Numbered from the stretch's first letter, positions 1,109-24,939 are shown. The stretch is DNA of 40,000 nucleotides from Methanohalophilus halophilus (GCF_001889405.1 NZ_CP017921.1:222057-262056); one strand, 5' to 3'. Numbers and translations: made by a program. The notes: generated from the letters alone by a model not told the origin.

Positions 1109-1306
1109 TACTATAGAATAGATATGTGGAAGTCAAGATATAAAAATTATTTTTACCAAAATTCTGAACATGTCTAACAAAAACAGCATAAAATCATTAA
1201 ACTTTTAATTAACAAACATATTATAGATAAATACAATGATCCAGACCTATCCACAATTAATCTCCATATCCTAAAAAAATAAGTTTACTTCAGCGAGATC
1301 AAACGC

Positions 1307-4063: not shown

Positions 4064-4084
4064 ACTCTTATGGTCTTTCAATAA

Positions 4085-5587
4085 ATGAAGTTGTGTGATG
4101 GCATGAAAATTCTATATGATACTAATATTTTGATTCACATACAGGACCCGAAAATTCTTTCTCCAGATCTTCAAGAGTTACTTGCACTAATCAGAGAACA
4201 TAGTCATCAAGAGGTTATTCATCCTGCTTCTCTCAAGGATATAGAAAATGATAATGACGCTGAAAGAAGAGAGATGATTCTATCAAAACTTCATGGTTAT
4301 CCAATACTACCATCACCACCTCAACCAAATGATTCATTTGTGTCTTTGGTAGGCACACCTTCAAATTCACATGACATAAATGATAACGAAATACTGTATT
4401 CACTTTATAAAGATCTCGTAGATTTTATTATTACAGAAGATAAAGGAATACGGAGAAAAGCATTCCGACTGGATGTTGACGATCGCGTTTTTTCTATCTC
4501 TTCAGCACTTGACTATTTCAAAAGATTATATAAAAGGTACGAACCCAAACATACATTGTTAAAGCAATTATATGCTCATGAAATTGACATTGATCAACCC
4601 TTTTTTGATTCTCTAAAAAGAGATTATACCAATTTTCAGCAGTGGTGGACGGAAAAATGTGTGAAACAAAGTCGTAAATGTTGGATATATGAAGAGGAAG
4701 GGGAAATAAAGGGATTTCTGATGCTCAAAGAGGAAACTGAAGCAATAGACACATATCCTCCTCAACCTATTAAATCTCGGGTCAAAATAACAACTTTAAA
4801 AGTAGATTTGTCCGGTTCTAAAATGGGAGAACTGTTTCTAAAAATAGCATTTCAATACTGCATAAATAACAATTTCTTTGAGATATACCTCACCCATTTT
4901 GAAACAAACGATGATTCTCTAGTATATGTAATTGGAAATTATGGTTTTGAGAACATTGGAAAGAGAACCTCCAATGGTGAAGATGTATATTTAAAAAAAT
5001 TCAAAGTGGAAGACACAGGGTTAGAACCTCTTACGATTGCCAATCGATATTATCCATGTTTTAAAGATGATGAAAACATCAAAAAATTTATCATTCCAAT
5101 CCAACCAGACTATCACGATACTCTTTTTCCTGATTGTTCCAGAAGACAGTTGACTTTTGATGACTATACAAAAATAAACGTTCCTGGAAACGCAATTAAA
5201 AAAGCCTATTTGTCGTCCTCAAGAATAACAAAAATAACTCCGGGAAGTATAGTTCTGTTCTATCGCTCTAGAGATCAAAAAGCAATTACAGCTGTAGGTG
5301 TGGTCGATCAAGATCCAATTAGAACAACAGACCCCGCAGAACTGAAAAGAATTGTGGGAAAAAGAAGTGTGTATTCCGATGAAGAACTCATGGGATGGAC
5401 AAAGAAAAACGTATTTGTGATTCCATTTAAACACCATTTATATTTACCAAATCCCTTAAACTTAAACTATTTGAAGGAAAAAGGTATTCTTAAGAGCCAC
5501 CCCCAATCAATAACAGAAATAAACCATGAACGATATGTAGCCCTAAAAAGTGGTGGCAAACTCGATGAACGTTTTACTGTCAATTAA
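4085..5587 (+). CDS. PIN - GNAT acetyltransferase - PUA-like (EVE/ASCH-like) multidomain protein embedded in the type I R-M operon
   Basis: 500-aa ORF between hsdR and hsdS. The N-terminus has PIN-like acidic motifs (ILYDTNILI, DNEILY, ITEDKG). The middle looks like a GNAT fold (GELFLKIAFQYCINNNFFEIYLTHF ... NYGFENIGKR). The C-terminus has a beta-barrel-like signature (PGSIVLFYRSRDQKAITAVGVVD) reminiscent of EVE/ASCH PUA-like domains. The true start may be the second Met at 4103. Domain calls are motif-based. Confidence 0.6.
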   Translation: MKLCDGMKILYDTNILIHIQDPKILSPDLQELLALIREHSHQEVIHPASLKDIENDNDAERREMILSKLHGYPILPSPPQPNDSFVSLVGTPSNSHDINDNEILYSLYKDLVDFIITEDKGIRRKAFRLDVDDRVFSISSALDYFKRLYKRYEPKHTLLKQLYAHEIDIDQPFFDSLKRDYTNFQQWWTEKCVKQSRKCWIYEEEGEIKGFLMLKEETEAIDTYPPQPIKSRVKITTLKVDLSGSKMGELFLKIAFQYCINNNFFEIYLTHFETNDDSLVYVIGNYGFENIGKRTSNGEDVYLKKFKVEDTGLEPLTIANRYYPCFKDDENIKKFIIPIQPDYHDTLFPDCSRRQLTFDDYTKINVPGNAIKKAYLSSSRITKITPGSIVLFYRSRDQKAITAVGVVDQDPIRTTDPAELKRIVGKRSVYSDEELMGWTKKNVFVIPFKHHLYLPNPLNLNYLKEKGILKSHPQSITEINHERYVALKSGGKLDERFTVN

Positions 5588-7550
5588 ACCAGAATATGTT
5601 GATGAAATCCTAAAAGGAAAAAAGAAATTCGAGTTCAGGAAGTCCATTTTTAAAAGAAGAGATATCACCAAAGTCTTCATTTATTCAAGTTCACCAGTCA
5701 AAAAAATTGTTGCATCATTTGAAATTGCCGGCATCATCGAAGATTATCCCGAAAATATATGGGATCAATGCCATGAATATGGAGGTATTACCAAAAACGA
5801 TTTTTTTGACTATTTCAGTAATACTCAAATTGGTTATGCAATCAAGATTTGCAATCTCCATGAGTTCTCCAAACCAATCGATCCCTATCTGCTAAAAAAA
5901 GACTTCAGGCCACCTCAATCTTATTATTATCTGCCTTTAGATTATTTCAGAGATTATGAACCAGTATTAATGGAATCTGGTAACGAGTATCGTACTGAAA
6001 TGGACAGCAAATTAGATACGCAAAAAAACATGCTGAATAAGAATATTTTAAAATTTGAGGAGAAGTACGGGTGGAAAACAGTTCGTTTAGGTGATTTTGC
6101 CATATATAAAAAAGGAAAAAAACCAAAAAAACAACAATCAGAAGGGTCTGATGTATTCAAATATCCATATATCAATATCAGAGCTTTTGATAAAGGGGAA
6201 ATAAAATATTATACTGATGGAGAGAATTGTGTAATATGTGAAGAAGATGACCTAGTAATGGTTTGGGATGGGTCTCGTAGTGGTTATGTTGGAAAGGCAA
6301 TAAAAGGTGCATTAGGTAGCACCTTAATGCGTCTCAAGATCCAAGCTACAGAAAATAAATTTGCTTATTATTTTCTGAAATCTAAATATCTTGAAATTAA
6401 TACAAGAACAAAGGGAACAGGCACACCTCATGTTGACCCTGCTATCCTGTGGAATTATCAATTTCCCTTACCACCCCTCCCCGAACAACGCGCCATCGTT
6501 TCCAAAATCGAGCAACTCTTCAGCGAACTGGACAACGGCATAGCCAACCTCAAAAAGGCACAGGAGCAACTCAAAGTGTACCGGCAGGCGGTGCTGAAGA
6601 AGGCATTTGAGGGAGAACTTACGCGAGAGTGGCGACAGCAGCAGACTGACCTGCCGGATGCGGAGGAATTGTTGGAGCAGATTCGAAAGGAGAGGGAAGA
6701 AAGCTACAACAGGAAACTGGATGAATGGAAAGCGGCGGTTAAAGAGTGGGAAGATGGTGGAAAGAAAGAGAAGAAGCCTTCCAAACCAAAAATGAGCAAA
6801 GAAAACAATCTCCTATCTGAAAGTAAAATAAGTAACTTATCCAATTTACCAAAAAAATGGACATGGACAAAGATAAAGGAAATTTCAATTGTAGGAACTG
6901 GAATCACACCTCTAAAAAAAAGACGGGATTTCTACGAAAATGGAACAATTCCTTGGATTACTAGTGGAGCACTAAACAAATCCTATGTGAATCTACCATC
7001 TGGATACGTTACTGAAACTGCTTTAAATGAAACAAATCTGAAAATTTATCCTAAGCATACTCTACTTGTAGCTCTTTATGGAGAAGGAAAAACACGCGGT
7101 AAGTGCTCTGAATTGCTAATTGAAGCAACAACAAATCAAGCTATTGCTGCAATTGTTCAAGAAGGAACTGAAGAAAAAATAAGACCATATTTAAGATGGT
7201 TTTTGATGAAAAATTATGATGAAATTAGATTAAAATCTTCTGGCGGAGTGCAACCAAATCTAAATTTAGGAATTATAGAAAATACATTCGTACCTCTTTG
7301 CCACTTAAATGAACAACAAGCCATCGTCTCCGAAATCGAAACCCGCCTTTCAGTTTGCGATAAAGTTGAGCAGGACATCGAGGAAAATCTGGAAAAGGCA
7401 GAAGCGCTGCGCCAGAGCATCCTGAAAAAGGCCTTTGAGGGGAAACTGCTCAACCAGCAGGAACTGGAAGAGGTACACAATGCACCGGACTGGGAACCTG
7501 CAGAGGTGCTGCTGGAGAAGGTACAGGCGGAGATAGCCGGTGCGAAATAA
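5550..7550 (+). CDS. hsdS: Type I R-M specificity subunit (HsdS) with N-terminal ASCH (PUA-like) domain fusion
   Basis: 666-aa ORF, longer than a typical HsdS. The first ~115 aa (MNVLLSIKPEYVDEILKGKKKFEFRK ... ) match the ASCH-domain N-terminal signature. Two TRDs follow, each ending in the conserved HsdS region (LPPLPEQRAIVSKIEQLF ... LKKAFEGELT and LCHLNEQQAIVSEIETRL ... LKKAFEGKLL). The start overlaps the upstream gene by 23-38 nt. The likely start is 5565. Confidence 0.88.
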   Translation: MVANSMNVLLSIKPEYVDEILKGKKKFEFRKSIFKRRDITKVFIYSSSPVKKIVASFEIAGIIEDYPENIWDQCHEYGGITKNDFFDYFSNTQIGYAIKICNLHEFSKPIDPYLLKKDFRPPQSYYYLPLDYFRDYEPVLMESGNEYRTEMDSKLDTQKNMLNKNILKFEEKYGWKTVRLGDFAIYKKGKKPKKQQSEGSDVFKYPYINIRAFDKGEIKYYTDGENCVICEEDDLVMVWDGSRSGYVGKAIKGALGSTLMRLKIQATENKFAYYFLKSKYLEINTRTKGTGTPHVDPAILWNYQFPLPPLPEQRAIVSKIEQLFSELDNGIANLKKAQEQLKVYRQAVLKKAFEGELTREWRQQQTDLPDAEELLEQIRKEREESYNRKLDEWKAAVKEWEDGGKKEKKPSKPKMSKENNLLSESKISNLSNLPKKWTWTKIKEISIVGTGITPLKKRRDFYENGTIPWITSGALNKSYVNLPSGYVTETALNETNLKIYPKHTLLVALYGEGKTRGKCSELLIEATTNQAIAAIVQEGTEEKIRPYLRWFLMKNYDEIRLKSSGGVQPNLNLGIIENTFVPLCHLNEQQAIVSEIETRLSVCDKVEQDIEENLEKAEALRQSILKKAFEGKLLNQQELEEVHNAPDWEPAEVLLEKVQAEIAGAK

Positions 7551-7586
7551 AACGTTACAACTAAAAACATTATCAAAGGTCCAACA

Positions 7587-9098
7587 ATGTCAGAAAACAC
7601 ATCATCCATAGTATCCAAGGTATGGAGCTTCTGCAACGTCCTGCGTGACGGCGGGGTCAGTTACGGAGATTATCTGGAGCAGCTGACCTATCTTATTTTC
7701 CTGAAGATGGCCAGTGAGTATAACAAGCCGCCCTATAACCGGGATATCGGGATTCCTGAAGAATACTCATGGGAGGAATTGAAACAGAAACGGGGTGCAG
7801 AACTGGACACTCATTACAGGAAGCTGCTTGAGGAAATGGGGAAAAAGCCCGGTATGCTCGGCCAGATCTTCCTTAAAGCCCAGAACAAGATCAGTGACCC
7901 GGCAATGCTGTACAAGGTCATTGATATGATCGATAAGGAAAGCTGGGTCATGATGGGTGTGGACACCAAGGGAGAGATCTACGAAGGGCTCTTGCAGAAG
8001 AATGCGGAAGATACCAAAAGCGGTGCAGGCCAGTATTTCACACCCCGGCCTCTCATCAAGGTCATGGTGGAATGCCTGCAGCCCGAACCCCTCAAAACCA
8101 TCGGAGATCCCTGCTGTGGTACCGGTGGGTTCTTCCTGGCAGCCTATGACTTCCTCAAAAACCGGGAAGGAGGATTGAACCGGGAACAGAGCCGCTTTTT
8201 GAAAGACAAAACGTTTTCAGGCAACGAAATCGTGGCCGGGACACGCAGGCTGGCACTGATGAATCTCTTTTTGCACAACATCGGTGAGATCGACGGAGAA
8301 CCGATGATCGACAACACCGATGCACTGATTGCCGACGCAGGTAAACGCTACGACTACGTCCTCACCAATCCCCCTTTTGGAAAGAAGAGCAGCATGACCT
8401 TCACAAACGAAGTCGGGGAAATCGAAAAGCAGGATCTCACCTATAACAGGCAGGATTTCTGGGTCACTACAAGTAACAAACAGCTCAACTTCTTGCAACA
8501 CATCCGCACCATGTTAAAAGCCGCAGGTCAGGCAGCAGTGGTCCTTCCTGACAATGTTTTGTTTGAAGGCGGAGTTGGTGAAACTGTACGCAAAAAACTT
8601 CTTGAAACCAGCGATCTGCATACCATACTGAGATTGCCTACAGGCATCTTCTATGCAAACGGTGTGAAAGCAAACGTGCTTTTCTTTGAAGCAAAAAAGG
8701 CTGCTAAAGACCCCTGGACAAAAGAAGTCTGGATTTATGATTATCGTACCAATGTACATCATACCCTGAAAAAGAATCCGATGAAATACTCCGATCTTGA
8801 CGACTTCATCAGGTGCTATAATCCGGAAAACCGTTTCAACCGGGAAGAAACCTGGGGTGAAGACAATCCAGAGGGACGTTTCCGTAGATTCACCTACGAT
8901 GAAATTGTAGCACGGGACAAAACCAATCTGGATATATTCTGGCTCAAGGACGAAAGCCTCGCTGACCTTGACAACCTGCCTGAGCCTGACATTCTGGCAA
9001 ATGAAATTGTGGAGAATCTTGAATCAGCTCTTGAAAGCTTTCAGGAGATTATAACTACGGTTAATGTGCAGGATGAAAAACCAGATGAAGAGGGTTAA
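7587..9098 (+). CDS. hsdM: Type I R-M N6-adenine DNA methyltransferase subunit (HsdM)
   Basis: 503-aa ORF with an HsdM N-terminal domain (WSFCNVLRDGGVSYGDYLEQLTYLIFLKM), SAM motif I (GDPCCGTGGF) and catalytic motif IV (TNPPFG). Confidence 0.95.
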   Translation: MSENTSSIVSKVWSFCNVLRDGGVSYGDYLEQLTYLIFLKMASEYNKPPYNRDIGIPEEYSWEELKQKRGAELDTHYRKLLEEMGKKPGMLGQIFLKAQNKISDPAMLYKVIDMIDKESWVMMGVDTKGEIYEGLLQKNAEDTKSGAGQYFTPRPLIKVMVECLQPEPLKTIGDPCCGTGGFFLAAYDFLKNREGGLNREQSRFLKDKTFSGNEIVAGTRRLALMNLFLHNIGEIDGEPMIDNTDALIADAGKRYDYVLTNPPFGKKSSMTFTNEVGEIEKQDLTYNRQDFWVTTSNKQLNFLQHIRTMLKAAGQAAVVLPDNVLFEGGVGETVRKKLLETSDLHTILRLPTGIFYANGVKANVLFFEAKKAAKDPWTKEVWIYDYRTNVHHTLKKNPMKYSDLDDFIRCYNPENRFNREETWGEDNPEGRFRRFTYDEIVARDKTNLDIFWLKDESLADLDNLPEPDILANEIVENLESALESFQEIITTVNVQDEKPDEEG

Positions 9099-9165
9099 CC
9101 AGATAAACTCCTATGAAGCCTTGAACGCCCTCTGTGCCAATCCTCGGCGATATTGTGATTATGCT

Positions 9166-9765
9166 CTAGGCCCGCCTGCCCCAGTGGATACAGGATTATC
9201 GCAGTCAGATATATGCCACTACACCGGATACCCCATAGGAAGCCCACAGAAGGCCGTGACAAAGAGCAACCCTCAATCAATGTGTAGGCCCTGTCTACCC
9301 CTCTGCGCCTTGTGAGCGGGCTCTGTGTTAAGCCTCGTGGATATTTGGGCCTAACTCCCTTCTAGACTGTCAACCTATGCAGTTATGCGCACATATCCGC
9401 CAGCCCCCATGAATGACACCACTCATCCGTCAAAGAATTTCAACCCACAACCTGCTAAAAAATAACCAAAAAAGCCGCCTGTTGGTGGTTTGTACATCGC
9501 CGGTTATGCAATGACGGCACAAAACCGTTCCCTTGCTAGCGATAAGTCACAAAACCCTGTCAAAAGCCCTATTGTTTTATTACACGTATTTTTATTATTT
9601 CACGTATTAGGCCACCCTAATTTTAAATTTAAGTGTGTCGTATAGAGTTTTTTACCCTATAGAGGGGGGTTTGTGACGTATCGCTATATAGCGCCTTGTT
9701 TTAGTATGACATTAGTTTACCATCTAAATTTTTTTATGTCTAAAACACTAGCAGGCGGGCCCTAG
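9166..9765. repeat. GC-rich noncoding block bounded by 14/15-bp inverted repeats (MITE-like candidate)
   Basis: ctaggcccgcctgc at 9166-9179 and its reverse complement with a 1-nt indel (gcaggcgggccctag) at 9751-9765. A third partial copy (agcaggcggg) lies at 9839-9848. There is no convincing ORF inside, and CTAG/TAG sits at both outer edges. Confidence 0.3.
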
Positions 9766-10365
9766 GTTTTCGACAGTAAATTTTGGAGTTTGACGTCTTT
9801 AAAAACCAGTTAAGCCTAGAAGTAAATAATCATATATCAGCAGGCGGGTTATAATAATAAAGGATAATAAAACACAAAAAGTAAACAACAAGTTTATAAG
9901 GTAAAATAGTTTAAAATGTTAAAGTTTGACGGATTTGTGACGGCACTGTAAAAATTTATTTGAAAAATATGGTAGTGGTGAACACGGGCTTAGAATCATA
10001 TTGTCTGGAGTGACAGACCCGTGCTCATGGTAGTGGTGTGCCAGTGGAATTTGAAATCATTTAACAAAGGAAACAAAATCTTCAGATTATAACAATATAA
10101 TGGAAGTTGAAAAAAGTCTTTTAAATCTGAGTCAGAAACTGTTCATGTATGTCAGATCCAAAAAGATAAAAACGCATTAACAGTAATAGTTTTGTTGGGT
10201 TTAATAAAGAAGAAATATTGAAACATATTTTCACAAAAACAACCATTGATGGAAATACATCGCCTCCATTTATTTAATTTTTGTATCTCTAGCAGTTAAA
10301 TTGAATCATCAGAGACAGTGAATTGGTGGATAATTTTTCCGTAATGGAAAATATGATTGAATAGC

Positions 10366-11967
10366 TCATTCATAATCAAAACTATAATAAATATATTCAC
10401 CATAGGGTTCGTCTCCATCTGAATTACCTTCTTCATCTTTTATTTCAATCGGTGTTAATTGCTTATCTTCATCATAAAACGAGATATCATTCTCCTTCAG
10501 AACACTGAAATAATCATCATTATCTAAAAGACCTGAATCATTTGGCGTAATCCATCCTTTCATTGTTGCTTCATAAGTCAACAACCACTTATTTTCGTAT
10601 AGTGATTCTGATGTTAGTTCATCAGCTAAAAAAGATGTATCTAAATCTGAATCAAGTAAATTTTTGTTTATCAGATCCAACACCAAAACCTGTGGAATAA
10701 CATCATTAGAACGAAGAATCGTATTCGCAAAATTTGCTGGGATTTTTATTTCAAATGTCTTAGCCATCCATAAAATCCATGAAAGTTCATAAGAATGCTT
10801 TTTGTAAAGATGTTGACCAAGTAATGTATGAATCAGATCTTTTATTTTGTTTTGGTTTTTAAATTCCTTATAATACAATAAAATTTCTATAATTGGTTTT
10901 ATTGTTTTTGCATCCAATAAAGTGCATTTAAATAATAGCGATTCAAACAAATCCCAATTTGATTCATAAATTTCATATTCTTTTATTCTTCTGATCGCAT
11001 ACTTAAGTACATGTTCACTTCTGTGTTCATCGAACAAATCAAAGGCCAAATTAAAATATTTCCAAATATCTTTTTCTTGCATGGATTCGTTTTTCCTTAA
11101 AGAAAAAGTACTTAGAGATAAAACCCATGGATCATCATAAGCCATTGGATAATGATTAATAATTGTTTTTTGTTCGTTTAAGACTAATTGATACTCATTT
11201 AAAATAGATTGTAAATAGACAATAAGGTTGTCAACATGATCTCTGTTTGACAAATAGAAGCAATAATCATCATAGTACCTATAACCCTTAAGATCAGGGA
11301 ATTCTTCTTTAAGTTTTTGATCTATTGCACAAAGTATAATTTCAGCAATAATGTGAGAATTATCAGGCCCGGTAGGAATTCCATTTGTTTGGCCTGACTG
11401 ACACGCTCTCATATATTTATCTAGTACATTGCCATAATATCTTTGGTAATCATTACGATTGTTTTTTGCTTCCTCTTTGGTATGCAATGCCCACGGAATT
11501 GAATGTGTGTAAATAGAAGGGTAAAACCAGGAAATATCTGTTTTTAGTTCAAACATTCTATCATAAGAACAAGTAATACATTTCTTCTTATATTGCTGAA
11601 ATGAGTTTAGAGTTTGTATCGAACGTTTATTTTTTGGATTTTCAAAACAATTTTCGACGGGCCTGCTTGTAGAAAGTTCTGATTTACTACAATGAGCTTT
11701 TATTTCTGCCCAATTATCAATTATGAATTTTGATAAATAAAATTGAGATATGGGGTTCACAATACTTAGTTTTCTTCTAATATGATTCTTTTTAGGAATC
11801 AAGTAATCCGTAAGTTGTGTATTTGGTATTTTAGGAACATCATTTCTAGATGTCGGATTCCATTGTGAATCAATTATTTGATGTTTGCTTGCAAAAGATT
11901 CTGTTGAAAATGCAGGAGGTAGTTCTTTTGGAAAATATCCATTTTCAAGTAAATTTTTAAGATTCAT
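10366..11967 (-). CDS. Reverse transcriptase of the defence-associated UG/Abi type (AbiK/Abi-P2-like architecture: RT domain + helical-repeat C-terminus)
   Basis: 533-aa ORF. It has RT motif A (KTDISWFYPSIYTHSIPWAL), a motif B-like segment (NGIPTGPDNSHIIAEIIL) and motif C YxDD (GYRYYDDYCFY). The N-terminal GYFPKELPPAF motif and the ~250-aa helical C-terminal region match non-LTR, non-group-II, non-retron 'Abi' RTs. No maturase/X domain or En domain is visible. Confidence 0.8.
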   Translation of the reverse strand: MNLKNLLENGYFPKELPPAFSTESFASKHQIIDSQWNPTSRNDVPKIPNTQLTDYLIPKKNHIRRKLSIVNPISQFYLSKFIIDNWAEIKAHCSKSELSTSRPVENCFENPKNKRSIQTLNSFQQYKKKCITCSYDRMFELKTDISWFYPSIYTHSIPWALHTKEEAKNNRNDYQRYYGNVLDKYMRACQSGQTNGIPTGPDNSHIIAEIILCAIDQKLKEEFPDLKGYRYYDDYCFYLSNRDHVDNLIVYLQSILNEYQLVLNEQKTIINHYPMAYDDPWVLSLSTFSLRKNESMQEKDIWKYFNLAFDLFDEHRSEHVLKYAIRRIKEYEIYESNWDLFESLLFKCTLLDAKTIKPIIEILLYYKEFKNQNKIKDLIHTLLGQHLYKKHSYELSWILWMAKTFEIKIPANFANTILRSNDVIPQVLVLDLINKNLLDSDLDTSFLADELTSESLYENKWLLTYEATMKGWITPNDSGLLDNDDYFSVLKENDISFYDEDKQLTPIEIKDEEGNSDGDEPYGEYIYYSFDYE

Positions 11968-12112
11968 TGTGAAGTTTATACTATCGTATCAACATTTAAA
12001 TTTTTGTATTCATTTCAAAAAATTTTGCCGAATTCTAGTGTACTTATAACTAAAAAGAATAGGGCAGTATATAGTTAATAATAAAAAAAGCAAACACTTA
12101 GAAATTGTTTAT

Positions 12113-12587
12113 ATGACTTTACATTATGAGATAATTGCCGAAGAAAACATGTTGAAAATATTCCAGCCTTTATGCAATAACAAGATTGACTGCCACTACT
12201 TCCAATGTACTGGATAAATGCAAAGGTATTAATTATAACAAAGAACGGGAAGGACAGACCAAGCCATTAAGCAATACGATTCTTGAGTATGTGAATCATC
12301 CATAACATAAGTTTGAGGATTATATTGGTGTTCTTGAAAGGAAGCATATTGATATTGATGGTTTCGTGTATATTGGCAAAGAGGCCAATGAGATTGATGA
12401 GCAAACTATGGACGTTTCAAGGCCACAGAAATTCTTGAATAAGGGATATGTTATGCAGAAGATACTTGATTAATCTCAAAAACAGGATGAGGAATGGGGA
12501 GTAGATAGAAAGACGTTTCAGAGAATCAAGAAGAGGATAATTGAGAATAGTGACATTAAATTGAATACTGTTGCTGTAAAAAACTAA
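12113..12587 (+). pseudogene. Casposon PolB C-terminal fragment (frameshifted, internally deleted)
   Basis: Translations across frames give TLHYEIIAEE, SLYAITRLTATTSNVLDK, KPLSNTILEYVNHP*HKF and RKHIDIDGFVYIGKEANEIDEQTMDVSRPQKF. These are collinear with residues ~655-888 of the intact PolB at 21018-23684 (KLHYGIISEE, SLYAISQLTVSTSNVLDR, KPLSNTILEYIDHPEHKF, RKHIDIDGFVYIGKEANDIDEQELDVVRPQKF). The fragment contains stops, frameshifts and a large internal deletion. Confidence 0.85.
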
Positions 12588-12656
12588 CTTCATCTTTACT
12601 TAGTTAAAGTTAGTAATAAGAAAACGTTTTCTAATGTTAGAGATAATAAAAAAACT

Positions 12657-13532
12657 ATGACGCGGCTCAAAGAAAACACTATTAACCAATTATCACGCTT
12701 GATTTGTGGTGAGGATTTTGATTTTTTACCGTATCGCAAATCATCTCAATTAACTGATTTTTTTCAAGAGCTTGGTTTTGACTATACTCATGATGGATCT
12801 ACCCGAAGATATTGGGTAAGAGACGTGTTAAGCGAAATAAACACCGAAACACCTTCAGATTCCGTATTTCCGTCTCCAGAAATAATTGCTGTAATTGAAC
12901 ACATATTAAATCCAGTGAATTTTCTTGATCTTCCTGATTCTGAAGAAAAACAAAATTTAGGCATTGAACGTGTAAATAAGCTGTTATCTTTACAAGACTT
13001 GTTTGTTGAAAAAGAAGAAAACGGTGCTGTTCAACTTCATTCTAGAAAAGGTGACTTTGTATCTACATCAGTAAATAGGGATGAGAAAAAAAGAGTGATG
13101 ACTTTTTCTCCTTCTGTTTTTGAATTGCCTAAAGGTTCCACAATGAAAAACTGCGTTTCCATAATGATGCCTTTTTCGAAAGAATTTGATAATGTATATT
13201 CCGCAATAAAAGCAGCCTGTGTTAGCGAAGGAATACCCTTTCACAGAGCTGATGATTTCTGGAAAAATAGTGTCATAATTCAAGATATTTTTGAACTAAT
13301 ATGCCGTTCATCAATTGTTATTGTTGATTTTTCAAATAGAAATGAAAATGTATTTTATGAAGCTGGTATTGCCCATACTTTAGGAAAACATGTTATACCA
13401 ATAACTCAAAGTATCGACAGTATACCTTTTGATTTGAGACATCATCGGCATATAGTATATCTAAACAATGGCGAGGGTTTGAGAGGGTTAGAAAAAAAGT
13501 TGATTGACCGGCTAGCTTCTCTAAAAGAATAA
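12657..13532 (+). CDS. Two-domain protein: helical N-terminal domain + C-terminal TIR-like / nucleoside 2-deoxyribosyltransferase-like Rossmannoid domain
   Basis: 291-aa ORF. The C-terminal ~130 aa show the pattern VSIMMPFSKEFDNVY..I......G.PFHRADD...........I..SSIVIVDFSNRNENVFYEAGIAHTLGKHVIPI....D.IPFDL. This pattern is typical of TIR-like/deoxyribosyltransferase-like domains, with the conserved Glu in YEAG. Confidence 0.55.
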   Translation: MTRLKENTINQLSRLICGEDFDFLPYRKSSQLTDFFQELGFDYTHDGSTRRYWVRDVLSEINTETPSDSVFPSPEIIAVIEHILNPVNFLDLPDSEEKQNLGIERVNKLLSLQDLFVEKEENGAVQLHSRKGDFVSTSVNRDEKKRVMTFSPSVFELPKGSTMKNCVSIMMPFSKEFDNVYSAIKAACVSEGIPFHRADDFWKNSVIIQDIFELICRSSIVIVDFSNRNENVFYEAGIAHTLGKHVIPITQSIDSIPFDLRHHRHIVYLNNGEGLRGLEKKLIDRLASLKE

Positions 13533-13590
13533 GTTTTGGAGAGGCGATGTTATGAAAAAAGACAATTTCGTCTATAAAGGGGAGTAATAG

Positions 13591-13929
13591 ATGAGTCATG
13601 AAGAACATTCTAAAATAACAAACGGTATCTATGTGTCTTTTGGAGAATTTGTAATTAATTCTGAATTAGTTGTAGAAAATATGAAACTATGTATTTATGA
13701 AATGTTTAGTAAAAGAGTGCTTAGTAATACCTTTGAAGGGCAGCAGTACTTAAATCTACTTTTAGCAGATTTTACATCCGCCCCTGTCAGGATGAAAATG
13801 AGAGTACTCATGGTTGAATCCTATATTAAGTTATCCAGAGACAAAATTCTCTGGTTGTTTTTTATTATTCTGTATGAGAAATCAAAACAAAAAAATATAC
13901 AAAATATTCTCAAATGCAACCTTTCATAA
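13591..13929 (+). CDS. Hypothetical small protein
   Basis: 112-aa ORF preceded by a purine-rich SD-like ggggag about 8 nt upstream of the ATG. No recognisable motifs. Confidence 0.35.
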   Translation: MSHEEHSKITNGIYVSFGEFVINSELVVENMKLCIYEMFSKRVLSNTFEGQQYLNLLLADFTSAPVRMKMRVLMVESYIKLSRDKILWLFFIILYEKSKQKNIQNILKCNLS

Positions 13930-13990
13930 TACTCAATAATCTTCAGGCAATATAATTGTGAATTTTCCTATTTCGTTTATTGCAATATAG

Positions 13991-14156
13991 ATATTCTGCC
14001 GTATTCCACTGGGCAATTCTATCTCTCCTGCTGAAGCTAAAGAAATCGGGATTAATAGTAGGAGTACATTGAATAAATTGAAAAAATAGGGCGAAAGAAG
14101 GGCATTTTAATTTGAATACGAAGGAGATGAGGAAGATATCCTTAAGTTTAATTTAA
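13991..14156 (+). pseudogene. Second casposon PolB extreme C-terminal fragment (HTH tail), frameshifted
   Basis: Translation gives IPLGNSISPAEAKEIGINSRSTLNKLKK*. After a 1-nt frameshift it continues NRAKEGHFNLNTKEMRKISLSLI*. This aligns with the intact PolB tail ILGLTPEDARRIGIKHRSALAYLKKKAKEGELNFKSRNMERIMDAFM. Confidence 0.7.
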
Positions 14157-14176
14157 TTATTCTCTAATCTATTTAC

Positions 14177-15025
14177 TCAAATATGCTTATAAAGACCCAT
14201 TTTAATCTTCCCACCTTCACCGAATTCAAGCTCTGAAAAACTAACTCCTTCAAGAAAGGTCATATCTGAATCTTCATAGCGGATTATATCTGAAATCGGG
14301 AGCTTTTTTAGTTCCTTCCACAAATGAACTTCAGCAGTAAAACCTTTTAACTGATACATTTCAGTTTCAGAAATCTCCATTTTATAGATTTGGTCTTTAT
14401 CAGCAAATGCAACTTTCTTTTGAATTCGAATTCCATCTTCTGGAATATCTTTGAATATTTCACTTTGTTTTACAATTACTTCTTGATAGAACAGTTCGTT
14501 CAAAGATAACTTTTCATTATTGGACATGAATTTTTCTTCATCACTTTCAAATTTAATATTATTACCATTATAATCAACTAATTCAAAAGTAAGTATTTTT
14601 ATAATTTCATATTGCTTATGTATTACTGGTAGACAATCACCTAAAAACCAAGAATGGATATCTTCTTTGCCGATTTGACTTAACACTCGTGTTTCAATTC
14701 CATAATGTTTTGCCGTTGTTTTTGCTGGTTCTGTAAAATCGTTAGATGAAACAGCTATTACTTTTTGAACGTTGAGATTTTGACACTTTGTTGCTAATTG
14801 CTCAATCCACATTGAATCCTGTTTAGTATTTCGATCTCTGCATTCTATGATTATTGTTAAAGGTATGGAGCCAATGTTTGCTTTAATTGAGATATCAACT
14901 TCTCTTTGCTGCCCAGTAATTTTGTCGATTAGAAAATCTGGAGAGGTAATTTCATATTCGTCTTTTGTTAATATTTTATGTAGCAGAGAAACCGTTTCTT
15001 CTAATTCTTTCCCTTTTCGTGCCAT
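14177..15025 (-). CDS. Restriction-endonuclease-fold (Mrr-cat-like) protein with unknown C-terminal domain
   Basis: 282-aa ORF. The N-terminus reads GKELEETVSLLHKIL ... QREVDISIKA ... TIIIECRDRNTKQ ... VIAVSSNDFTEPAKTTAKHYGIE, which fits the D...(D/E)xK nuclease core of Mrr-type enzymes. The C-terminal ~140 aa are unassigned. Confidence 0.55.
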   Translation of the reverse strand: MARKGKELEETVSLLHKILTKDEYEITSPDFLIDKITGQQREVDISIKANIGSIPLTIIIECRDRNTKQDSMWIEQLATKCQNLNVQKVIAVSSNDFTEPAKTTAKHYGIETRVLSQIGKEDIHSWFLGDCLPVIHKQYEIIKILTFELVDYNGNNIKFESDEEKFMSNNEKLSLNELFYQEVIVKQSEIFKDIPEDGIRIQKKVAFADKDQIYKMEISETEMYQLKGFTAEVHLWKELKKLPISDIIRYEDSDMTFLEGVSFSELEFGEGGKIKMGLYKHI

Positions 15026-15180
15026 TAAAAATTAAATTAATTGTCATGGTTAAAAAAGTATCTGATAATGATTTCTTTTTAATGATAAATGTGGTTATTT
15101 GAGTTTTTTATTTTTGGGTAAAGGTGTACATTTTTTCTTAGGAAATTAAAAAAATGGTTGTGCGTACAGAGTGCAAAACG

Positions 15181-15211
15181 CCGTACACTTTTTTCGCGTT
15201 GTATATATCCC
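15181..15211. repeat. Degenerate casposon terminal inverted repeat (right end of decayed distal element)
   Basis: ccgtacacttttttcgcgttgtatatatccc aligns without gaps to the intact right TIR gcgtacaaaaaattggagataactatatccc (19/31 identical). The cgtaca block and the terminal tatatccc sit at the same spacing. It directly abuts a TSD copy. Confidence 0.6.
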
Positions 15212-15225
15212 AGAAAAATAGTGCG
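15212..15225. repeat. Target-site duplication copy 1 (agaaaaatagtgcg)
   Basis: Exact 14-bp match to 19588-19601 and 28530-28543. It lies between a TIR-like right end and a TIR left end. Confidence 0.85.
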
Positions 15226-15387
15226 GGGATATAGTTATCTTAGATTTTTTGTACGGTATCTGTATTCTTTGTTCTTACTTAAAATAGAATGATTTATTTT
15301 AATAGTGGTTTTATATATTTGACAATATATTAATTCAAAATATGTTTTGGTTTAAGAGAAATTATTTTGTACAAGTATATTTAATGA

Positions 15388-15750
15388 TTGGGTATGAAGA
15401 AAGATGAACTTTTTATTAGAGAGTTTATTGTTGGATTAGGCTTTGTAAGTGGTTTATGGATTGCTGTTGGAATAAATCCAGAATCCCTAATAATTGAACA
15501 ACTAGTAAAAATTGGGAATACATTAACACCAAAACATAATTTTGGGTTTCTATTAATACTACCAAGCATAACTACTTTAATATCAATTATAAGTGCGTGG
15601 TTTTATGGTGGAGTTTTGGGTATGATTGCTATATTACTTGCTTTTATTAGTGGCATACTAATAATTCATTTTACCATGATAGCATCTGTTTTTTTGATGC
15701 TTTCTTTATTATTGGCTTCATTATCTGTAGATAATAATTATACTTATTGA
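15388..15750 (+). CDS. Small integral membrane protein (about 3 TM helices)
   Basis: 120-aa ORF with hydrophobic stretches: VGLGFVSGLWIAVGI, FGFLLILPSITTLISIISAWFYGGVLGMIAILLAFISGILIIHFTMIASVFLMLSLLLASL. Confidence 0.55.
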   Translation: MGMKKDELFIREFIVGLGFVSGLWIAVGINPESLIIEQLVKIGNTLTPKHNFGFLLILPSITTLISIISAWFYGGVLGMIAILLAFISGILIIHFTMIASVFLMLSLLLASLSVDNNYTY

Positions 15751-15764
15751 ATTGATTCATGGCC

Positions 15765-16070
15765 TTAATAAACATAATTAATAAGATAGTTATTGAGATT
15801 AGATATGGTTTTGTATTGTAATTCTATTAAGTCAGGTAATTTTTTAACAATTGGTAGTTCTTGGCTATAAATACTTGTGGGATATATGACATTTCTAAGC
15901 CTTGATTTGCTATTACTTTTTGTTCTTATCGGATAACGTGATAATATTGAATGAGTTAGTGGGATTTTTGCTAAAACATAAAGTGGTCCCAATACACTTA
16001 TGAATTTAAGGGCCTGCAATATTATTTTTTTTATATCAATCGAAAGTTGCAGTAATTGTGAGTCATTCAA
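15765..16070 (-). CDS. Hypothetical protein downstream of the HEPN gene
   Basis: 101-aa ORF located 6 nt downstream of the HEPN gene stop on the same strand. It has no recognisable motifs and is not an MNT nucleotidyltransferase (no GS...D.D motif). Confidence 0.4.
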   Translation of the reverse strand: MNDSQLLQLSIDIKKIILQALKFISVLGPLYVLAKIPLTHSILSRYPIRTKSNSKSRLRNVIYPTSIYSQELPIVKKLPDLIELQYKTISNLNNYLINYVY

Positions 16071-16076
16071 TTCAGA

Positions 16077-16664
16077 TTAAATATTAACAGATCCCAATTG
16101 TTCTTTATCTATATATTCACATTTCTCAAAATTACTAACTAATTGATTTATATTGTCTTTCCATTGTTTTAGATCTATCGAAGATTGATCTAAGGATTCA
16201 ATACTTTTTTTAATAGAAATTTCTAATTCAGAGACACTCTGAAAAATATCATTTATCTCGCGGGTTGATAAGAAATAAGGATTACGCTTAGATTTTTGCA
16301 TCTTGCCAATTTCCCGCAAGCCATTTTCACAGTGTACTATATTTTCTTCAGGTGATATTTCAATCAAAGAAAATATTTCATTAATTTCTGGAATATGATT
16401 AAGTAATTTAGCAGATCTTTGATATTTTTCTTTTTGGTCAATAAGCATTCTTTTATATATTTCCATAGGATCGTGTCTGATTTCTAGCATGGATTCTTCA
16501 TCGAATTTTCCAGAAGATAAAGCAAGTGCTTTGTTTGCCTTTTCCACACTTTGGGCAAAGAAAAAGATTGATTGTGGATAACATTTATTTTCATATAATA
16601 CAACTGAAGATTTTAAATCAGATTTTGCGAGTTTTACAAATTCTTTTACATATTTCATACTCAT
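16077..16664 (-). CDS. HEPN domain protein
   Basis: 195-aa all-helical ORF. The N-terminal signature AKSDLKSSVVLYENKCYPQSIFFFAQSVEKANKALAL is the classic HEPN helix 1-2 pattern (A..DL..A........y.....a.Q..EKa.KA). Confidence 0.65.
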   Translation of the reverse strand: MSMKYVKEFVKLAKSDLKSSVVLYENKCYPQSIFFFAQSVEKANKALALSSGKFDEESMLEIRHDPMEIYKRMLIDQKEKYQRSAKLLNHIPEINEIFSLIEISPEENIVHCENGLREIGKMQKSKRNPYFLSTREINDIFQSVSELEISIKKSIESLDQSSIDLKQWKDNINQLVSNFEKCEYIDKEQLGSVNI

Positions 16665-16705
16665 TCTCTCGTATATAATTATGCCATATTTATACCTTCA
16701 CTCAA

Positions 16706-16786
16706 AAAACACAACAAATTTATAATTCATCATATAAATCTTACTGCATAATAATTGTGTGATAAATTATAAATTTGTTGTGTTTT
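16706..16786. promoter_or_regulatory. Perfect 22-bp inverted repeat in the divergent intergenic region (operator or RNA hairpin candidate)
   Basis: aaaacacaacaaatttataatt (16706-16727) and its exact reverse complement aattataaatttgttgtgtttt (16765-16786), separated by 37 bp. It lies between the divergently oriented HEPN gene and the 754-aa gene. Confidence 0.6.
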
Positions 16787-16958
16787 ATTAAGTGTGGGGA
16801 ACAGATTTCTATAGAAATTACTACCTCTGGATAAACAACACAGATAGATATTATAATGATAGATTTAAATGAAAAATGCTTAATAAAGACCTACAAAATA
16901 TATAATATGAAGAAGAATGAAATTTTAATTATGGAATATCAGATACAATTTACTTGGA

Positions 16959-19223
16959 TTGAATAGCATGGGCACATATAAAAAAGAGACGCATAGCAAA
17001 GACTTATATGAGCTATATAAGCATGCAGAGAAAAACACAAAATCCGATTTCATTTCTATTTTTCGATGGTTGCGTAATCAGAATCAAATACTTGGCATAA
17101 ACGATTTACTCAAACTTCAACAGTATAATTCTCCTAACTATGGACATTGGGAAGTACCACTTTCAGTTATCCAATTATACAATATATTGCTTAATTCGAG
17201 AAAGTCTAAAAATATTCTTGATCCAGTAGGGAAATTAGGTTTGTTAGGGGGCATAATCTCAGAAAATGAAAATGTTCAAAATGTCGACATTGTAAGCAGT
17301 TTGCATGAATCTGAAGAAATAATACAATCAGTAAATATGCCAAAAGTTTCGCTTACTATTGGAAATATTATTGATCTCAAAGATAATTTAAAAGATAACT
17401 ACGATGCAATAATAGGCATACCACCAATAAATAACAAGGGGGATGTCAATAATAATTTAGTGGAAACTGCAAAAATGTTGTCCAAGGAAGGAATAATTGC
17501 TTTTGTAGTACCACCTCGCATTGCTTGGGATAAAAGCAAAAAATCAATAAAAGTGTCTCTAGAAAACAACGGATTATACCTGTCAGCATTATTGCAATTC
17601 CGTCCGGGAACATTTACTACAACAAATATACCTTTTTATCTTGCAATTTTTGAAAAAGTCAATCATGATACTTTGTTCGTAGGGGAAGTTCCTGAAAAAT
17701 ATGATGAATATGATGAATTGATAAAATGCTTTTCAAAAAGAAAAGAGGGAGAAACTATAAATCAAGGAAGATTGGTAGACCCCAATAATTTTAATGGGAT
17801 CAAATCTCTCAAAGCAAAAGAAAGAGCAAAAAAACTTGCTTCAGAAAGAGGACTTAAACCCATTCCTTTTGATAAGGTAGTTCACACAATAAATACTCCT
17901 AAAAAGAGAGGAAAAGATTTTGAAAGATTTGATGAACACCCAGATGCGGTTTATTTGCCTCAAATGGCAACAACAGAAGCAAAAACTCATCAAAACGATC
18001 TATCTCCGAAATTGAAATCATATTTGCAACTGATAGTCAATCATGATGTTGTTTTACCTGAATATTTAGCTGAATGGCTTAATACAACATTGGGTATTGC
18101 CTTTCGGGAATCAGCAATGCAAGGAATAACTATACCCAGAATAAATAAGAGCAATCTTCTATTAAGTAACCTTTACTTGCCTTCTGTTATAGATCAGCGT
18201 AAGGCATTAGATGCTCTTCTTTCAATTCAAGAAATGAAGTCTGATCTAGATGAGCTTGGGTCCAAAATATGGTATCAACCTTTAAATGTGTCAGAGGTCA
18301 TAACATCTTTAGAAAAAATTAATAGAGAGGAAGTATTTGGCGATTGGATAGAATCTCTTCCATACCCCCTCGCTTCAATTCTTAGATCATATGATACAGT
18401 AGACCAAACAGACAAAGACAAATATGAACGGCTCTTGCTTTTTTATGAAGGATTTGCTGAATTTTGCGCAACGGTGCATATTAGTGCATTTAAGAAACAG
18501 CCAGCTATTTGGGAGCCATTGAAAAATAAAATAAAACAAGTAATGGCTGAGAATAATTTTTCATTTGAAAAACCAACTTTTGGTTTGTGGGCCTCTATAA
18601 CAAGTATATTGGCGAAAGAATTACGTTCAATGATTAATGGAAAACAAGATGATAAAGATGCTACAAATGCACTTTATGAAACAGCTGATTTAGAACCATT
18701 AGAAATATTGTCATCCAAATCTTTAGTTAATTTAATAAACGAAACTAATAAAAAACGCAATGATTGGAGTGGTCACACAGGGGCTGTTTCCCAAAAAGAA
18801 GCTCGTGAAAGACATGACCACCTGAAAAACCAACTATCAAATTTGCATAAAATAATAGGTGATCTCTTCCAACAATATAAGCTTGTGGAGGCCGAGCCAT
18901 CAGGAATTGATGCTTTGACAGAGTCAAAGTTTAAGTGTAAAGTTAAATTAGTAATGGGTTCAAATCCTCTTCTTGAACGTCAAACATTGCAATTGAGTAT
19001 GACGTTAATTACAGGGTCATTATATATGTATAACATTGGAAATGATAGGGTTCTTGAACTGGTCCCATTTATTCAGGTCACTGAATCTCCACAATCTGCT
19101 AGTTACTTCTATAATAGAGTGGAAAAAGAAGGGTTACGCCTTGTTTCTTATCAAGTTATTAATGAATCAGAAATATTTAGAAAAAATCAGTACCTAGAGG
19201 ATTTGATAAAAAGTTTTACTTAA
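16959..19223 (+). CDS. Fusion protein: degenerate N6-MTase-like domain + HsdS-like TRD + C-terminal helical domain with HEPN-like Rx5H motif
   Basis: 754-aa ORF (TTG at 16959, first ATG at 16968). It has a Rossmann-like ILDPVGKLGLLGG and an atypical motif IV, AIIGIPPIN (I instead of N/D/S before PP). An HsdS-like segment reads GITIPRINKSNLLLSNLYLPSVIDQRKALDALLSIQEM. The C-terminal helical region contains KKRNDWSGHTGAVSQKEARERH. Confidence 0.55.
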   Translation: MNSMGTYKKETHSKDLYELYKHAEKNTKSDFISIFRWLRNQNQILGINDLLKLQQYNSPNYGHWEVPLSVIQLYNILLNSRKSKNILDPVGKLGLLGGIISENENVQNVDIVSSLHESEEIIQSVNMPKVSLTIGNIIDLKDNLKDNYDAIIGIPPINNKGDVNNNLVETAKMLSKEGIIAFVVPPRIAWDKSKKSIKVSLENNGLYLSALLQFRPGTFTTTNIPFYLAIFEKVNHDTLFVGEVPEKYDEYDELIKCFSKRKEGETINQGRLVDPNNFNGIKSLKAKERAKKLASERGLKPIPFDKVVHTINTPKKRGKDFERFDEHPDAVYLPQMATTEAKTHQNDLSPKLKSYLQLIVNHDVVLPEYLAEWLNTTLGIAFRESAMQGITIPRINKSNLLLSNLYLPSVIDQRKALDALLSIQEMKSDLDELGSKIWYQPLNVSEVITSLEKINREEVFGDWIESLPYPLASILRSYDTVDQTDKDKYERLLLFYEGFAEFCATVHISAFKKQPAIWEPLKNKIKQVMAENNFSFEKPTFGLWASITSILAKELRSMINGKQDDKDATNALYETADLEPLEILSSKSLVNLINETNKKRNDWSGHTGAVSQKEARERHDHLKNQLSNLHKIIGDLFQQYKLVEAEPSGIDALTESKFKCKVKLVMGSNPLLERQTLQLSMTLITGSLYMYNIGNDRVLELVPFIQVTESPQSASYFYNRVEKEGLRLVSYQVINESEIFRKNQYLEDLIKSFT

Positions 19224-19587
19224 TGAAAGAAGGGAGTTATGAAGATTCTAACTATTACCAAATATAATATAAAAAGTACTCTTAGACAGTTTCCAAAAAA
19301 ACAATCATTAATGATGAAAATATATTCTTTTCATCAGCATTTCGAGTATCCATGCACAAAGTGATAAATGTATTTTGAGTAGTAGGTCCTTTCAAAAATA
19401 GATTAATGCAGTTTGGTCAAATGTTGCTTTTTATTAGTTAGTAAGTATAAAATACGAATTAATATAATTTTTTGGTGGTTGTATTTTTCAATTCTACCTA
19501 TAACCCCGATTTTATGTGTGAGTGATAAAATTCGAACCAAAACTTTCTAAAATTCTGAGTATCTTATTTTCAGGATACCTATATCCC

Positions 19588-19601
19588 AGAAAAATAGTGC
19601 G
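19588..19601. repeat. Target-site duplication copy 2 (agaaaaatagtgcg)
   Basis: Exact 14-bp repeat. It separates the right end of the non-autonomous element from the left TIR of the intact casposon. Confidence 0.85.
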
Positions 19602-19632
19602 GGGATATAGTTATCTCTAATTTTTTGTACGC
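19602..19632. repeat. Casposon left terminal inverted repeat
   Basis: See the casposon feature (19602-28529). This TIR matches the reverse complement of 28499-28529 at 30/31. Confidence 0.9.
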
Positions 19633-19845
19633 TAAGTATTTACAGACTTATTTAAATTAACTACTGGGTTAATCTTTTAAATTGAAACCCAGATAAATGT
19701 ACAGAACGTTCAATTCACATCTTCTTTTAAAAGAGTGTCACTTTTTCGCAAAAGGAACATTTTTATAATAAACGGTTTATGATCCATTATCATTATACTT
19801 TTTTATAAAATGATGTAATATATCATGTTAAATATAGTTTGATTA

Positions 19846-20787
19846 TTGGGTGGTATTATGTATTGCCATAATTGTGGTTCAGAAATAGATGATAATGATG
19901 CTGCATTTTGCTCAAAATGTGGAACTAAAATCAAAAAAATAGAAAAAGAAATATTGTCCTCTACACTTGATGTAAAAAATGAAGAAAGTAGGAAGGATGA
20001 ATCATATATTGAGTTAGATACAGCCAACCAAAATAACACATCTATTAAAAAAGAAAATCCAGATTCGTGGGTTTTTATAAAAATATGTGCATATATAATT
20101 TGTGCTGTGGTTATTTCTTCCTTATTTATAGGCCTGTATAATATTGGTAGTGATTTTTATGGGGGTGAGGGAGCGTTTGTACAAGGTGAAGGTGGAGAAG
20201 GATTCGTTGCTTCAAATTCTGATATTACCCATAGCTTAACACAAGAACAAAAAAACACTCAAATTTGTGAAGAAATTGTACAAAACTACTATGAAACCCA
20301 TACATACGTATCGGATGATGTTTTTGATTGCGATAACATGGCAATGGATGTTTGGAATTTAGTAGAAAGTAAAGGAATAAATGCTGAAATTGCCGTGGGT
20401 AATGTAGATATGAAGGATGCAAATTTAGAAGATATCAATCATGCTTGGGTAATAGCAGAAGTTTCACCACAAAATTGGGTAGCTATAGAATGTACCAGTG
20501 GTTATCTTACATATGATGATGTGTATTATTCGGGTTGGTTCTTTGACAACCCTAAAAACTATCAAAGTTTTTTAAATGTATATACCACTTGGGAATATAA
20601 ATATCAAGAATATGAAAATTATAGATTATATTATAATGAATTGGTTGAACAGTTTAATGAGGCTGATGCCTATGAGCAAGCCTCACTAAGAAGTGGTCTT
20701 GAAATTGCAAGAGAAAATCTTCATCAAAAAGAAAGAGATTTTTTACAGGCTAAAACCGAATTAAATGCATTATTAGAATATGGGTAA
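19846..20787 (+). CDS. Zinc-ribbon / TM / transglutaminase-like cysteine-protease-fold protein (casposon cargo)
   Basis: 313-aa ORF whose likely true start is the ATG at 19858 (MYCHNCGSEIDDNDAAFCSKCG zinc ribbon). It has one TM helix (WVFIKICAYIICAVVISSLFIGLY). A Cys...His...Glu/Asp arrangement (FDCDNMAMDVWNLVESKGINAEIAVG ... INHAWVIAEV ... WVAIECTSG) resembles the transglutaminase-like core. Confidence 0.6.
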   Translation: MGGIMYCHNCGSEIDDNDAAFCSKCGTKIKKIEKEILSSTLDVKNEESRKDESYIELDTANQNNTSIKKENPDSWVFIKICAYIICAVVISSLFIGLYNIGSDFYGGEGAFVQGEGGEGFVASNSDITHSLTQEQKNTQICEEIVQNYYETHTYVSDDVFDCDNMAMDVWNLVESKGINAEIAVGNVDMKDANLEDINHAWVIAEVSPQNWVAIECTSGYLTYDDVYYSGWFFDNPKNYQSFLNVYTTWEYKYQEYENYRLYYNELVEQFNEADAYEQASLRSGLEIARENLHQKERDFLQAKTELNALLEYG

Positions 20788-21017
20788 ATATCATTATGAA
20801 ATTGAATATATTTCAAAAACATCTTTCCAGAAAACTTCAAGGACTGCAACAATTAAAATTACAGTTTCATCGCGAAAAGCTTTATTGTTTAAATTATTGA
20901 TTTTTTCAAAATTTATTTCAAATGCTTTGTTAATATCTTGTATTCATGGATTTTATCATTTTGAGACATAAACAAAATAATGTATGTCAACACTTATTGT
21001 TTTATTGATTCAGAGCT

Positions 21018-24018: not shown

Positions 24019-24023
24019 CTCCT

Positions 24024-24805: not shown

Positions 24806-24939
24806 TGGTTTTCACCAATAGACTGTATGTACAGCCATACTGATATTAACAATGATATTGATTTTAATACTAAAATGAGCATTAATGATATAAACCATAA
24901 CAAATATGATATTATATTAGATAGTGAGAGGTAGAAATA

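Follow-up and report, generated by a model that had tools for sequence, protein, structure and literature searches.

The 40,000-nt stretch of Methanohalophilus halophilus DNA analysed here (GCF_001889405.1 NZ_CP017921.1:222057-262056; henceforth the window, to which all coordinates refer) carries an intact family-2 casposon beside a tRNA-Leu(tag) gene and, further from the tRNA, two short pseudogene fragments of the casposon polymerase PolB. We consider it highly probable that casposons were added in tandem at the 3' end of the tRNA gene and that the region holding these fragments, 12053-15225, forms the old end of the resulting array, consisting of relics of older casposons that decayed by deletion. 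The fragments themselves are functionless: as fossils, they record no fewer than two ancestral casposons, and probably four or five, which fall into three types as told from their terminal inverted repeats (TIRs) and PolB tails.

The layout of the array follows from its target site duplications (TSDs). The 14-mer AGAAAAATAGTGCG, which reads CGCACTATTTTTCT on the tRNA strand, has exactly three exact copies in the window, starting at 15212, 19588 and 28530. Each is flanked by TIRs, and the junctions take the form TIR-TSD-TIR. The first copy (15212-15225) is common to two elements that we call C and B, the second (19588-19601) is common to elements B and A, and the third (28530-28543) overlaps the 3' end of tRNA-Leu(tag) (28539-28624, minus strand), the integration target. 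An Rfam search of the whole window matched only three tRNAs and gave no match in the stretch 9000-12200.

Element A (19602-28529) is the intact member. Its TIRs are 33 nt long and 97% complementary, with an exact 14-nt TSD on both sides. PolB (21018-23684, minus strand, 888 aa; Pfam DNA_pol_B_2, E 6.8e-15) has 898 homologs, mostly in Methanosarcinales, and the casposase (25848-27050, plus strand; Pfam Cas_Cas1, E 4.6e-68) ends in a helix-turn-helix (HTH) tail, WKKMGFSKGTLHYMKQNAKSGKPFSLN, that is conserved among relatives. Neighbouring open reading frames (ORFs) of 113, 213 and 302 aa are conserved in 24-37 loci, and a zinc-ribbon ORF (19846-20787) lies between PolB and the TIR. With a Cas1-type casposase bearing an HTH, a PolB that also bears one, small core genes, TIRs and a TSD, element A is a family-2 casposon on every count. 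No contig on record encodes a PolB identical to that of the window, and the best PolB match among the genome-collection loci is 69%.

Fragment 1 (12119-12587, plus strand) spans PolB codons ~672-888 and is recovered by tblastn, profile and DNA alignments. The intact PolB of the window matches it at 12156-12536 by tblastn (residues 687-867, E 4.5e-28), and a profile of 109 PolB homologs, with the window's own protein left out, scores it at E 1.3e-37, the alignment reaching the C-terminus (position 886 of the profile's 887). Homology at the DNA level runs from ~12119 to 12608, with 74-82% identity to the window's intact gene. The first-pass annotation of this DNA had described the fragment as residues ~655-888 with stops, frameshifts and a large deletion. 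Its account of the lesions stands: 2 nt are missing near 12150 and 1 nt from the last A-run, 53 codons (159 nt) have been deleted in frame, and TAA stops occur twice. Its starting point does not stand, as alignment with relatives places the 5' truncation near codon 672.

Comparison with loci from other genomes and metagenomes (numbered with the prefix L) shows that fragment 1 is not of a piece. The PolB of a metagenome relative, L074, is closer to it (87.8% over 180 nt) than the window's own PolB is (82%). Within fragment 1, 12269-12436 is 86.9% identical to L074; for 12437-12587 the identity is 88.7% with the Methanococcoides alaskense locus L004 but merely 47-50% with L074 and with the window's PolB. 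The tail, EEWGVDRKTFQRIKKRIIENSDIKLNTVAVK, is 82% identical to that of L004, and its closest lineage consists of L004 and L153, a metagenome contig described below. Judged by these affinities, fragment 1 is a mosaic that joins a body of clade 1 to a tail of type 3, and it is the relic of an older casposon, element D, from a third lineage.

Fragment 2 (14018-14156, plus strand) retains the last ~45 codons of PolB, an HTH tail of type 2, and is recognised by profile, DNA and protein alignments. Against the window's PolB, tblastn gives a two-piece match at 14021-14138 (residues 845-883, joint E 0.019). On a PolB-tail profile searched against the 1861 stop-to-stop segments of the window, two adjacent, collinear halves of the fragment score E 3.1e-5 and 4.9e-4, with the next best segment at E 0.74. 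Its DNA at 14025-14138 is 80-82.5% identical to the PolB 3' ends of L030, L025, L046 and L024, the highest value being for L030 from Methanolobus sp. WCC5 (82.5% over 114 nt, E 3.9e-25), to which the protein is 68% identical over 44 residues (E 3.6e-19); the L030 PolB overall is merely 44% identical to that of the window. PolB homology starts abruptly at ~14024. The single frameshift that had been reported in an A-run is present, as one extra A (TTGAAAAAATAGGG, compared with TTG-AAGGATAGGG in relatives).

A sequence as short as fragment 2 might derive from something other than PolB. The C-terminal HTH of the casposase is homologous to the PolB tail, a likeness noted earlier (Krupovic et al. 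2014, PMC4046053), and the window's own Cas1 tail scores 42.7 bits on the PolB-tail profile; given also the E value of merely 0.019 against the window's PolB, fragment 2 could be the HTH of a casposase or of some other protein, or a chance match. We find this very improbable, and it is refuted by the profile scores together with the matches to PolB ends. Fragment 2 scores 43.9 bits on the PolB-tail profile but 22.9 bits on a Cas1-tail profile, on which a true Cas1 tail reaches 111 bits; all its best protein and DNA matches are C-termini of full-length PolBs; and both halves stand out window-wide at the E values given above. That the window holds two real C-terminal pseudogene fragments of PolB is thus borne out.

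Beyond fragment 2 lie an intact gene for an Mrr-like restriction endonuclease (14177-15025, minus strand; Pfam Mrr_cat, E 1.9e-5) and a well-conserved right-end TIR of type 2, GGGATATATACAACGCGAAAAAAGTGTACGGCG (15147-15211, minus strand), which is directly abutted by the exact TSD at 15212-15225. Since the tail and the TIR belong to the same clade and the distance from the stop codon of fragment 2 to the TIR tip, 1055 nt, falls within the range of 16 intact, TIR-bounded relatives (946-3936 nt), we read fragment 2, the Mrr-like gene and the TIR as the right end of one eroded casposon, element C, with the Mrr-like gene as its terminal cargo. Tail and TIR are both typical of a divergent casposon clade: over the 30 nt of 15182-15211, the TIR is 93-97% identical to the divergent-clade TIRs of L018, L024 and L008; it also matches those of L025 and L023, and it resembles L038 across 62-80 nt. 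The TIR at 15181-15211 had been called degenerate, which these identities contradict; nor does it (15178-15211) end the stretches of both fragments, as had been supposed, since it belongs only to the element of fragment 2. A homolog of the Mrr-like gene (58% identical in aa, 73.6% in nt) is the terminal cargo of a casposon of Methanococcoides sp. SA1, where it stands at the Cas1 end with 162 nt between it and the TIR tip, and another homolog sits in a provirus-like contig. In 1-19601 we found neither a Cas1 or other core-gene remnant of element C nor a second type-2 TIR; with no casposase gene and no second TIR, element C is therefore a relic and not a complete casposon. Over the same interval, tblastx against 19 elements returned the two PolB fragments and the TIRs as the only casposon core-gene remnants.

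Do the two fragments descend from two PolB genes or from one? They lie on the same strand (plus, opposite to the intact PolB, as had been noted), they are 1.4 kb apart and both cover the PolB C-terminus, an arrangement that a local duplication of the 3' end of one old PolB copy could also produce. Their overlapping tails, however, have just 11 of 37 residues in common (~30%), and their DNA is not alignable. Moreover, they belong to two tail types: fragment 1 has its best tail match in L004 (88.7%) and fragment 2 in L030 (82.5%), the tail of fragment 2, IGINSRSTLNKLKK-RAKEGHFNLNTKEMRK, being nearest to a lineage of L030, L025 and L024. A duplication is refuted by these lineages and by the unalignable DNA, and we give it practically no weight. 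The tail of the intact PolB, IGIKHRSALAYLKKKAKEGELNF, differs again, so that the three PolB tails of the window fall into three separate tail lineages. The earlier proposal that the fragments are independent and come from separate older casposons is upheld.

The tails are informative beyond their number. The subterminal part of the TIR comes in three types (..TTTTTTGTACGC, ..AAAAAAGTGTACGC and ..AAAAAACCGAACTC, the last being type 3), and a tree of the PolB tails of 15 elements (window regions 21018-21155, 12437-12587 and 14018-14156, with loci among L001-L030) groups exactly by TIR type. A tree of the PolB bodies does not: it makes L002 (type 1) and L021 (type 2) sisters and places L001 (type 1) with L016 (type 3). 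The match extends to relics, in that the type-2 tail of fragment 2 stands by a type-2 TIR and a type-3 tail in L153 stands by a type-3 TIR. It is conceivable, though we would not wager on it, that the ~45-residue HTH tail of PolB is a swappable module that reads the subterminal TIR, for instance as a reader of the replication origin, and that the HTH of the casposase reads the invariant tip. If so, the array would record that casposons differing in tail and TIR type invaded one after another. The correspondence, which may be new, offers a testable idea of how the casposon polymerase finds its template.

Between the fragments lie two ORFs that had been assigned to fragment 1 as its cargo. One (12657-13532, plus strand) is an intact ORF of 291 aa with weak similarity to a TIR domain (PADLOC TIR effector model, E 1.4e-5, residues 202-267); it has no Pfam, NCBIfam or PDB sequence match, and no cluster-mate of at least 90% identity was found. 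At none of the 64 metagenome loci with homologs of this gene are casposon genes nearby. The other (13591-13929, plus strand, 112 aa) has no family match and no homolog in any fetched locus. A search for a residual TIR or TSD between 13930 and 14000 had been proposed. Our scan of 12590-14025 with the three TIRs of the window, 18 TIRs of all types and the TSD with up to three mismatches yielded nothing above noise. A TSD-like sequence with three mismatches at 14080-14093 was rejected, as it lies inside the A-run of fragment 2 and is at chance level (7 matches, 4.9 expected). Without a bounding TIR, and with 64 loci that lack casposon genes, the assignment of these ORFs to fragment 1 is not sustained; the TIR-like ORF may be cargo of element D, possibly together with the small ORF, or else an unrelated insertion.

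Just upstream of fragment 1, at 12053-12106 (plus strand), gapped local alignment suggests what may be the degenerate left end of element D: a candidate TSD remnant (AAAAGAATAGGGC) followed by a left-end TIR of the 'AAAAAACCGAACTC' type. The candidate scores 41 (L003) and 38 (L008a) against TSD plus type-3 TIRs, where the maxima of controls, namely 86 reversed low-GC, composition-matched chunks of 6.2 kb, are 36 and 38. Its type agrees with the tail type of fragment 1.

The truncated end of fragment 1 is adjoined by an intact gene for a 533-aa reverse transcriptase of the antiviral Drt4 class (10366-11967, minus strand). PADLOC assigns it to Drt4 at E 2e-194, and the NCBIfam Drt4 model gives 267.6 bits, under its cut-off of 450 bits; it is not the reverse transcriptase of a group II intron. 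None of 73 PolB loci from other genomes contains a homolog.

Element B (15226-19587) stands between elements C and A, bounded by TIRs and exact TSDs on both sides and devoid of Cas1 and PolB. Its left TIR is of type 1 and its right TIR type-3-like, and they match each other over the first 14 nt only. By base count the type of the right TIR is ambiguous (21 versus 22 matches of 34, counted by hand), and BLAST similarity to the type-3 TIR region of L016 favours type 3 over a degenerate type 1. Element B is probably a fusion of two elements. Its cargo comprises a HEPN protein (16077-16664) with a 101-aa partner, a pair found also in L014, and a 754-aa protein with similarity to methyltransferases and type I specificity domains. 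This HEPN pair in L014 is the one exception to a lack of cargo ORF homologs in the 73 PolB loci.

How might such an array grow and decay? The casposase would insert a casposon at the 14-bp target overlapping the tRNA 3' end and duplicate that target. The casposase of A. boonei requires that TCAAATC, a leader motif, stand 8 bp upstream of the TSD (PMC6614799), and in M. mazei a mini-casposon has been shown to integrate in tandem in vivo (PMC10359463). The T-loop of the window's tRNA has TCGAATC at exactly this distance upstream of the TSD, whereas what precedes the internal TSD copies is a TIR. Because only the tRNA-side copy has the leader, new insertions are expected beside the tRNA; that copy alone would be reusable, and older elements would be pushed off by newer ones. 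By this logic we infer that element A is the youngest and D the oldest, in agreement with the gradient of decay. A deletion across a junction between neighbours would have removed the right end of D together with the left TIR, the Cas1 gene and most of the PolB gene of C, and a similar deletion probably fused two elements into B. Through this decay intact defence-like cargo genes would have been kept.

Several findings weigh against this account. No link of the TIR-like ORF or the 112-aa ORF to casposons was found; TIR scans of all types found no recognisable right TIR for element D, and its left TSD/TIR candidate is barely above noise; the insertion order rests on experiments in vitro with a different casposase. 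Other Methanohalophilus genomes are syntenic with the window over a type I restriction-modification operon, but only up to 9089, inside the end of hsdM. Finally, the intact tRNA-Leu of the window is an allele other than that of L153, from a near relative of the host, and differs from it by changes that are paired across the two strands of the stems. A 42-nt copy of the tRNA-Leu 5' half (28720-28761; compare 28583-28624), situated 96 nt upstream of the intact gene and continuous with the conserved flank, matches the L153 allele. From the synteny break, the allele difference and the spare 5' half it follows that the array or parts of it may come from elsewhere, and sequence comparison suggests that tRNA and array may have been replaced or brought in together by recombination.

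These last points lead to a different history, in which a fused composite with a type-3 left TIR, a type-2 right TIR and both relics between them was mobilised in trans as one non-autonomous unit, or in which the whole array was acquired with its tRNA-Leu allele by recombination. In keeping with it, the outer TIR types are mismatched both in D+C, where a candidate of type 3 at 12066-12106 faces type 2 at 15211, and in B (type 1 and type-3-like), the TIR tip GGGATATAG is common to all types, the casposase HTH is nearly invariant across types, and mini-casposons without core genes integrate in vivo (PMC10359463); the differing allele with the relative-type 5' half left at 28720-28761 and the break at 9089 would fit as well. 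On the other hand, no second copy of the composite was found in any fetched locus, its left TIR candidate is weak, and at 15211/15226 and 19587/19602 the elements seem to meet as in ordinary tandem arrays, at exact TSDs. We regard this history as unlikely. It would still involve two ancestral casposons, but would give no count of insertions at this site. The number of relics counts ancestral elements and not necessarily insertions at the tRNA-Leu site. Of the earlier claim that at least two further ancient insertions are recorded here, the two ancestral elements stand, whereas insertion at this site is not a necessary part, as fused relics or the array could move as a unit.

An array decaying from old elements at its far end remains our preferred reading, and relatives supply parallels for it. 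The closest casposon, at metagenome locus L074, has a PolB 90% and a Cas1 94% identical to those of element A. It resembles element A in its core genes, its TIRs (31 of 34 positions), its tRNA-Leu target and a tandem junction at the far end, but it faces the other way relative to the tRNA, and its cargo is unrelated at either end: the PolB slot holds an ORF of 326 aa, the Cas1 side a Mrr_cat protein of 363 aa. More widely, in 18 stretches from PolB to TIR (16 intact elements, C and the putative D) no ORF is common to elements. The PolB-distal end is variable, as had been proposed for a cargo slot; this variability is not confined to that end, for the Cas1 end varies too (L074, L150), and variable gene content had already been published.

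The closest parallel to the relics is in L153, an ENA metagenome contig from the host's close relative, whose flank is 89-92% identical to the window. There the same tRNA-Leu(tag) has one relic (10343-11828), in which a NERD-domain gene accompanies a TIR of type 3 and a 3' piece of PolB with 81% identity to fragment 1; immediately after it come flavodoxin and ferredoxin genes of the host, which the window lacks. When the relic and fragment 1 were compared for orthology, their lesions proved independent and their cargo different. The 73 PolB loci contain 35 short relic segments of PolB tails; for about half of these segments a TIR-tip motif lies no more than 4.5 kb away on the expected side, and in many of these cases within 1-2 kb. 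From the L153 relic and these 35 segments we conclude that casposons commonly decay in a way that retains PolB tail, cargo and TIR. The Cas1 C-terminus has left relics as well (~47-49 aa, 79-84% identical to the window's casposase), at 2697-2868 and 17546-17692 of L003 and at 3153-3293 of L009; Cas1-side ends therefore survive as PolB-side ends do.

Much of this has precedent. Methanosarcina sp. 2.H.T.1A.x carries tandem family-2 casposons at tRNA-Leu that share a TSD, one with a PolB inactivated by stop codons, and M. mazei has solo TIRs (Krupovic et al. 2016, PMC4779613). Like those casposons, the array targets the 3' end of tRNA-Leu, has a 14-bp TSD beginning CGCA (the M. mazei pattern) and contains an inactivated PolB copy with remnants left behind; the PolB of that strain (L022) is 66% identical to the window's. 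It differs in its host, M. halophilus; in having remains of at least four elements where the other has two closely related copies; in having remains of three TIR and PolB-tail types; in neighbouring relics that appear fused; and in far more advanced decay, which has left a tail of 45 codons and a 5'-truncated fragment. Element B resembles the mini-casposon of M. mazei Go1, which integrates in the TSD of a resident casposon (PMC10359463), in being bounded by TIRs without Cas1 or PolB; that mini-casposon was engineered, whereas element B is natural, with defence-like genes and two TIR types. Repeated site-specific insertion, inactivated older members and the newest member expected beside the recognition sequence also recall the pile-up of Tn7-like elements at attTn7 and the growth of CRISPR arrays beside their leader; the likeness is one of mechanism alone, and the age order here is one that we infer. 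Tandem casposons sharing a TSD at tRNA-Leu, inactivated PolB, solo TIRs, variable gene content and the HTH of Cas1 and PolB are all already published (PMC4779613, PMC4046053). The array is a new, more decayed and more heterogeneous instance of that phenomenon, and the current picture of casposons is unchanged.

What the region offers is a dissected example of an ageing site-specific casposon array, in which internal and junction-spanning deletions strip the core genes and leave the TIR-proximal ends and intact defence-like cargo (Mrr-like nuclease, TIR-like, HEPN and methyltransferase-like proteins), with the gene for the Drt4-type reverse transcriptase next to this surviving cargo. One tRNA site has been used by casposons of three TIR and PolB-tail types. 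For annotation, the example helps with short PolB tails and an "odd" TIR that would otherwise be missed or misread.

Before the synteny break, other Methanohalophilus genomes have a gene for a 744-aa GmrSD_N protein between hsdS and hsdM (7736-9970 of L142) that is absent from the type I restriction-modification operon of the window (7550-7590). After the break, approximately 9100-9560 is G+C-rich with no ORF of more than 83 aa and gives way to AT-rich DNA; short overlapping ORFs lie at 9064-9315 and 9095-9280.

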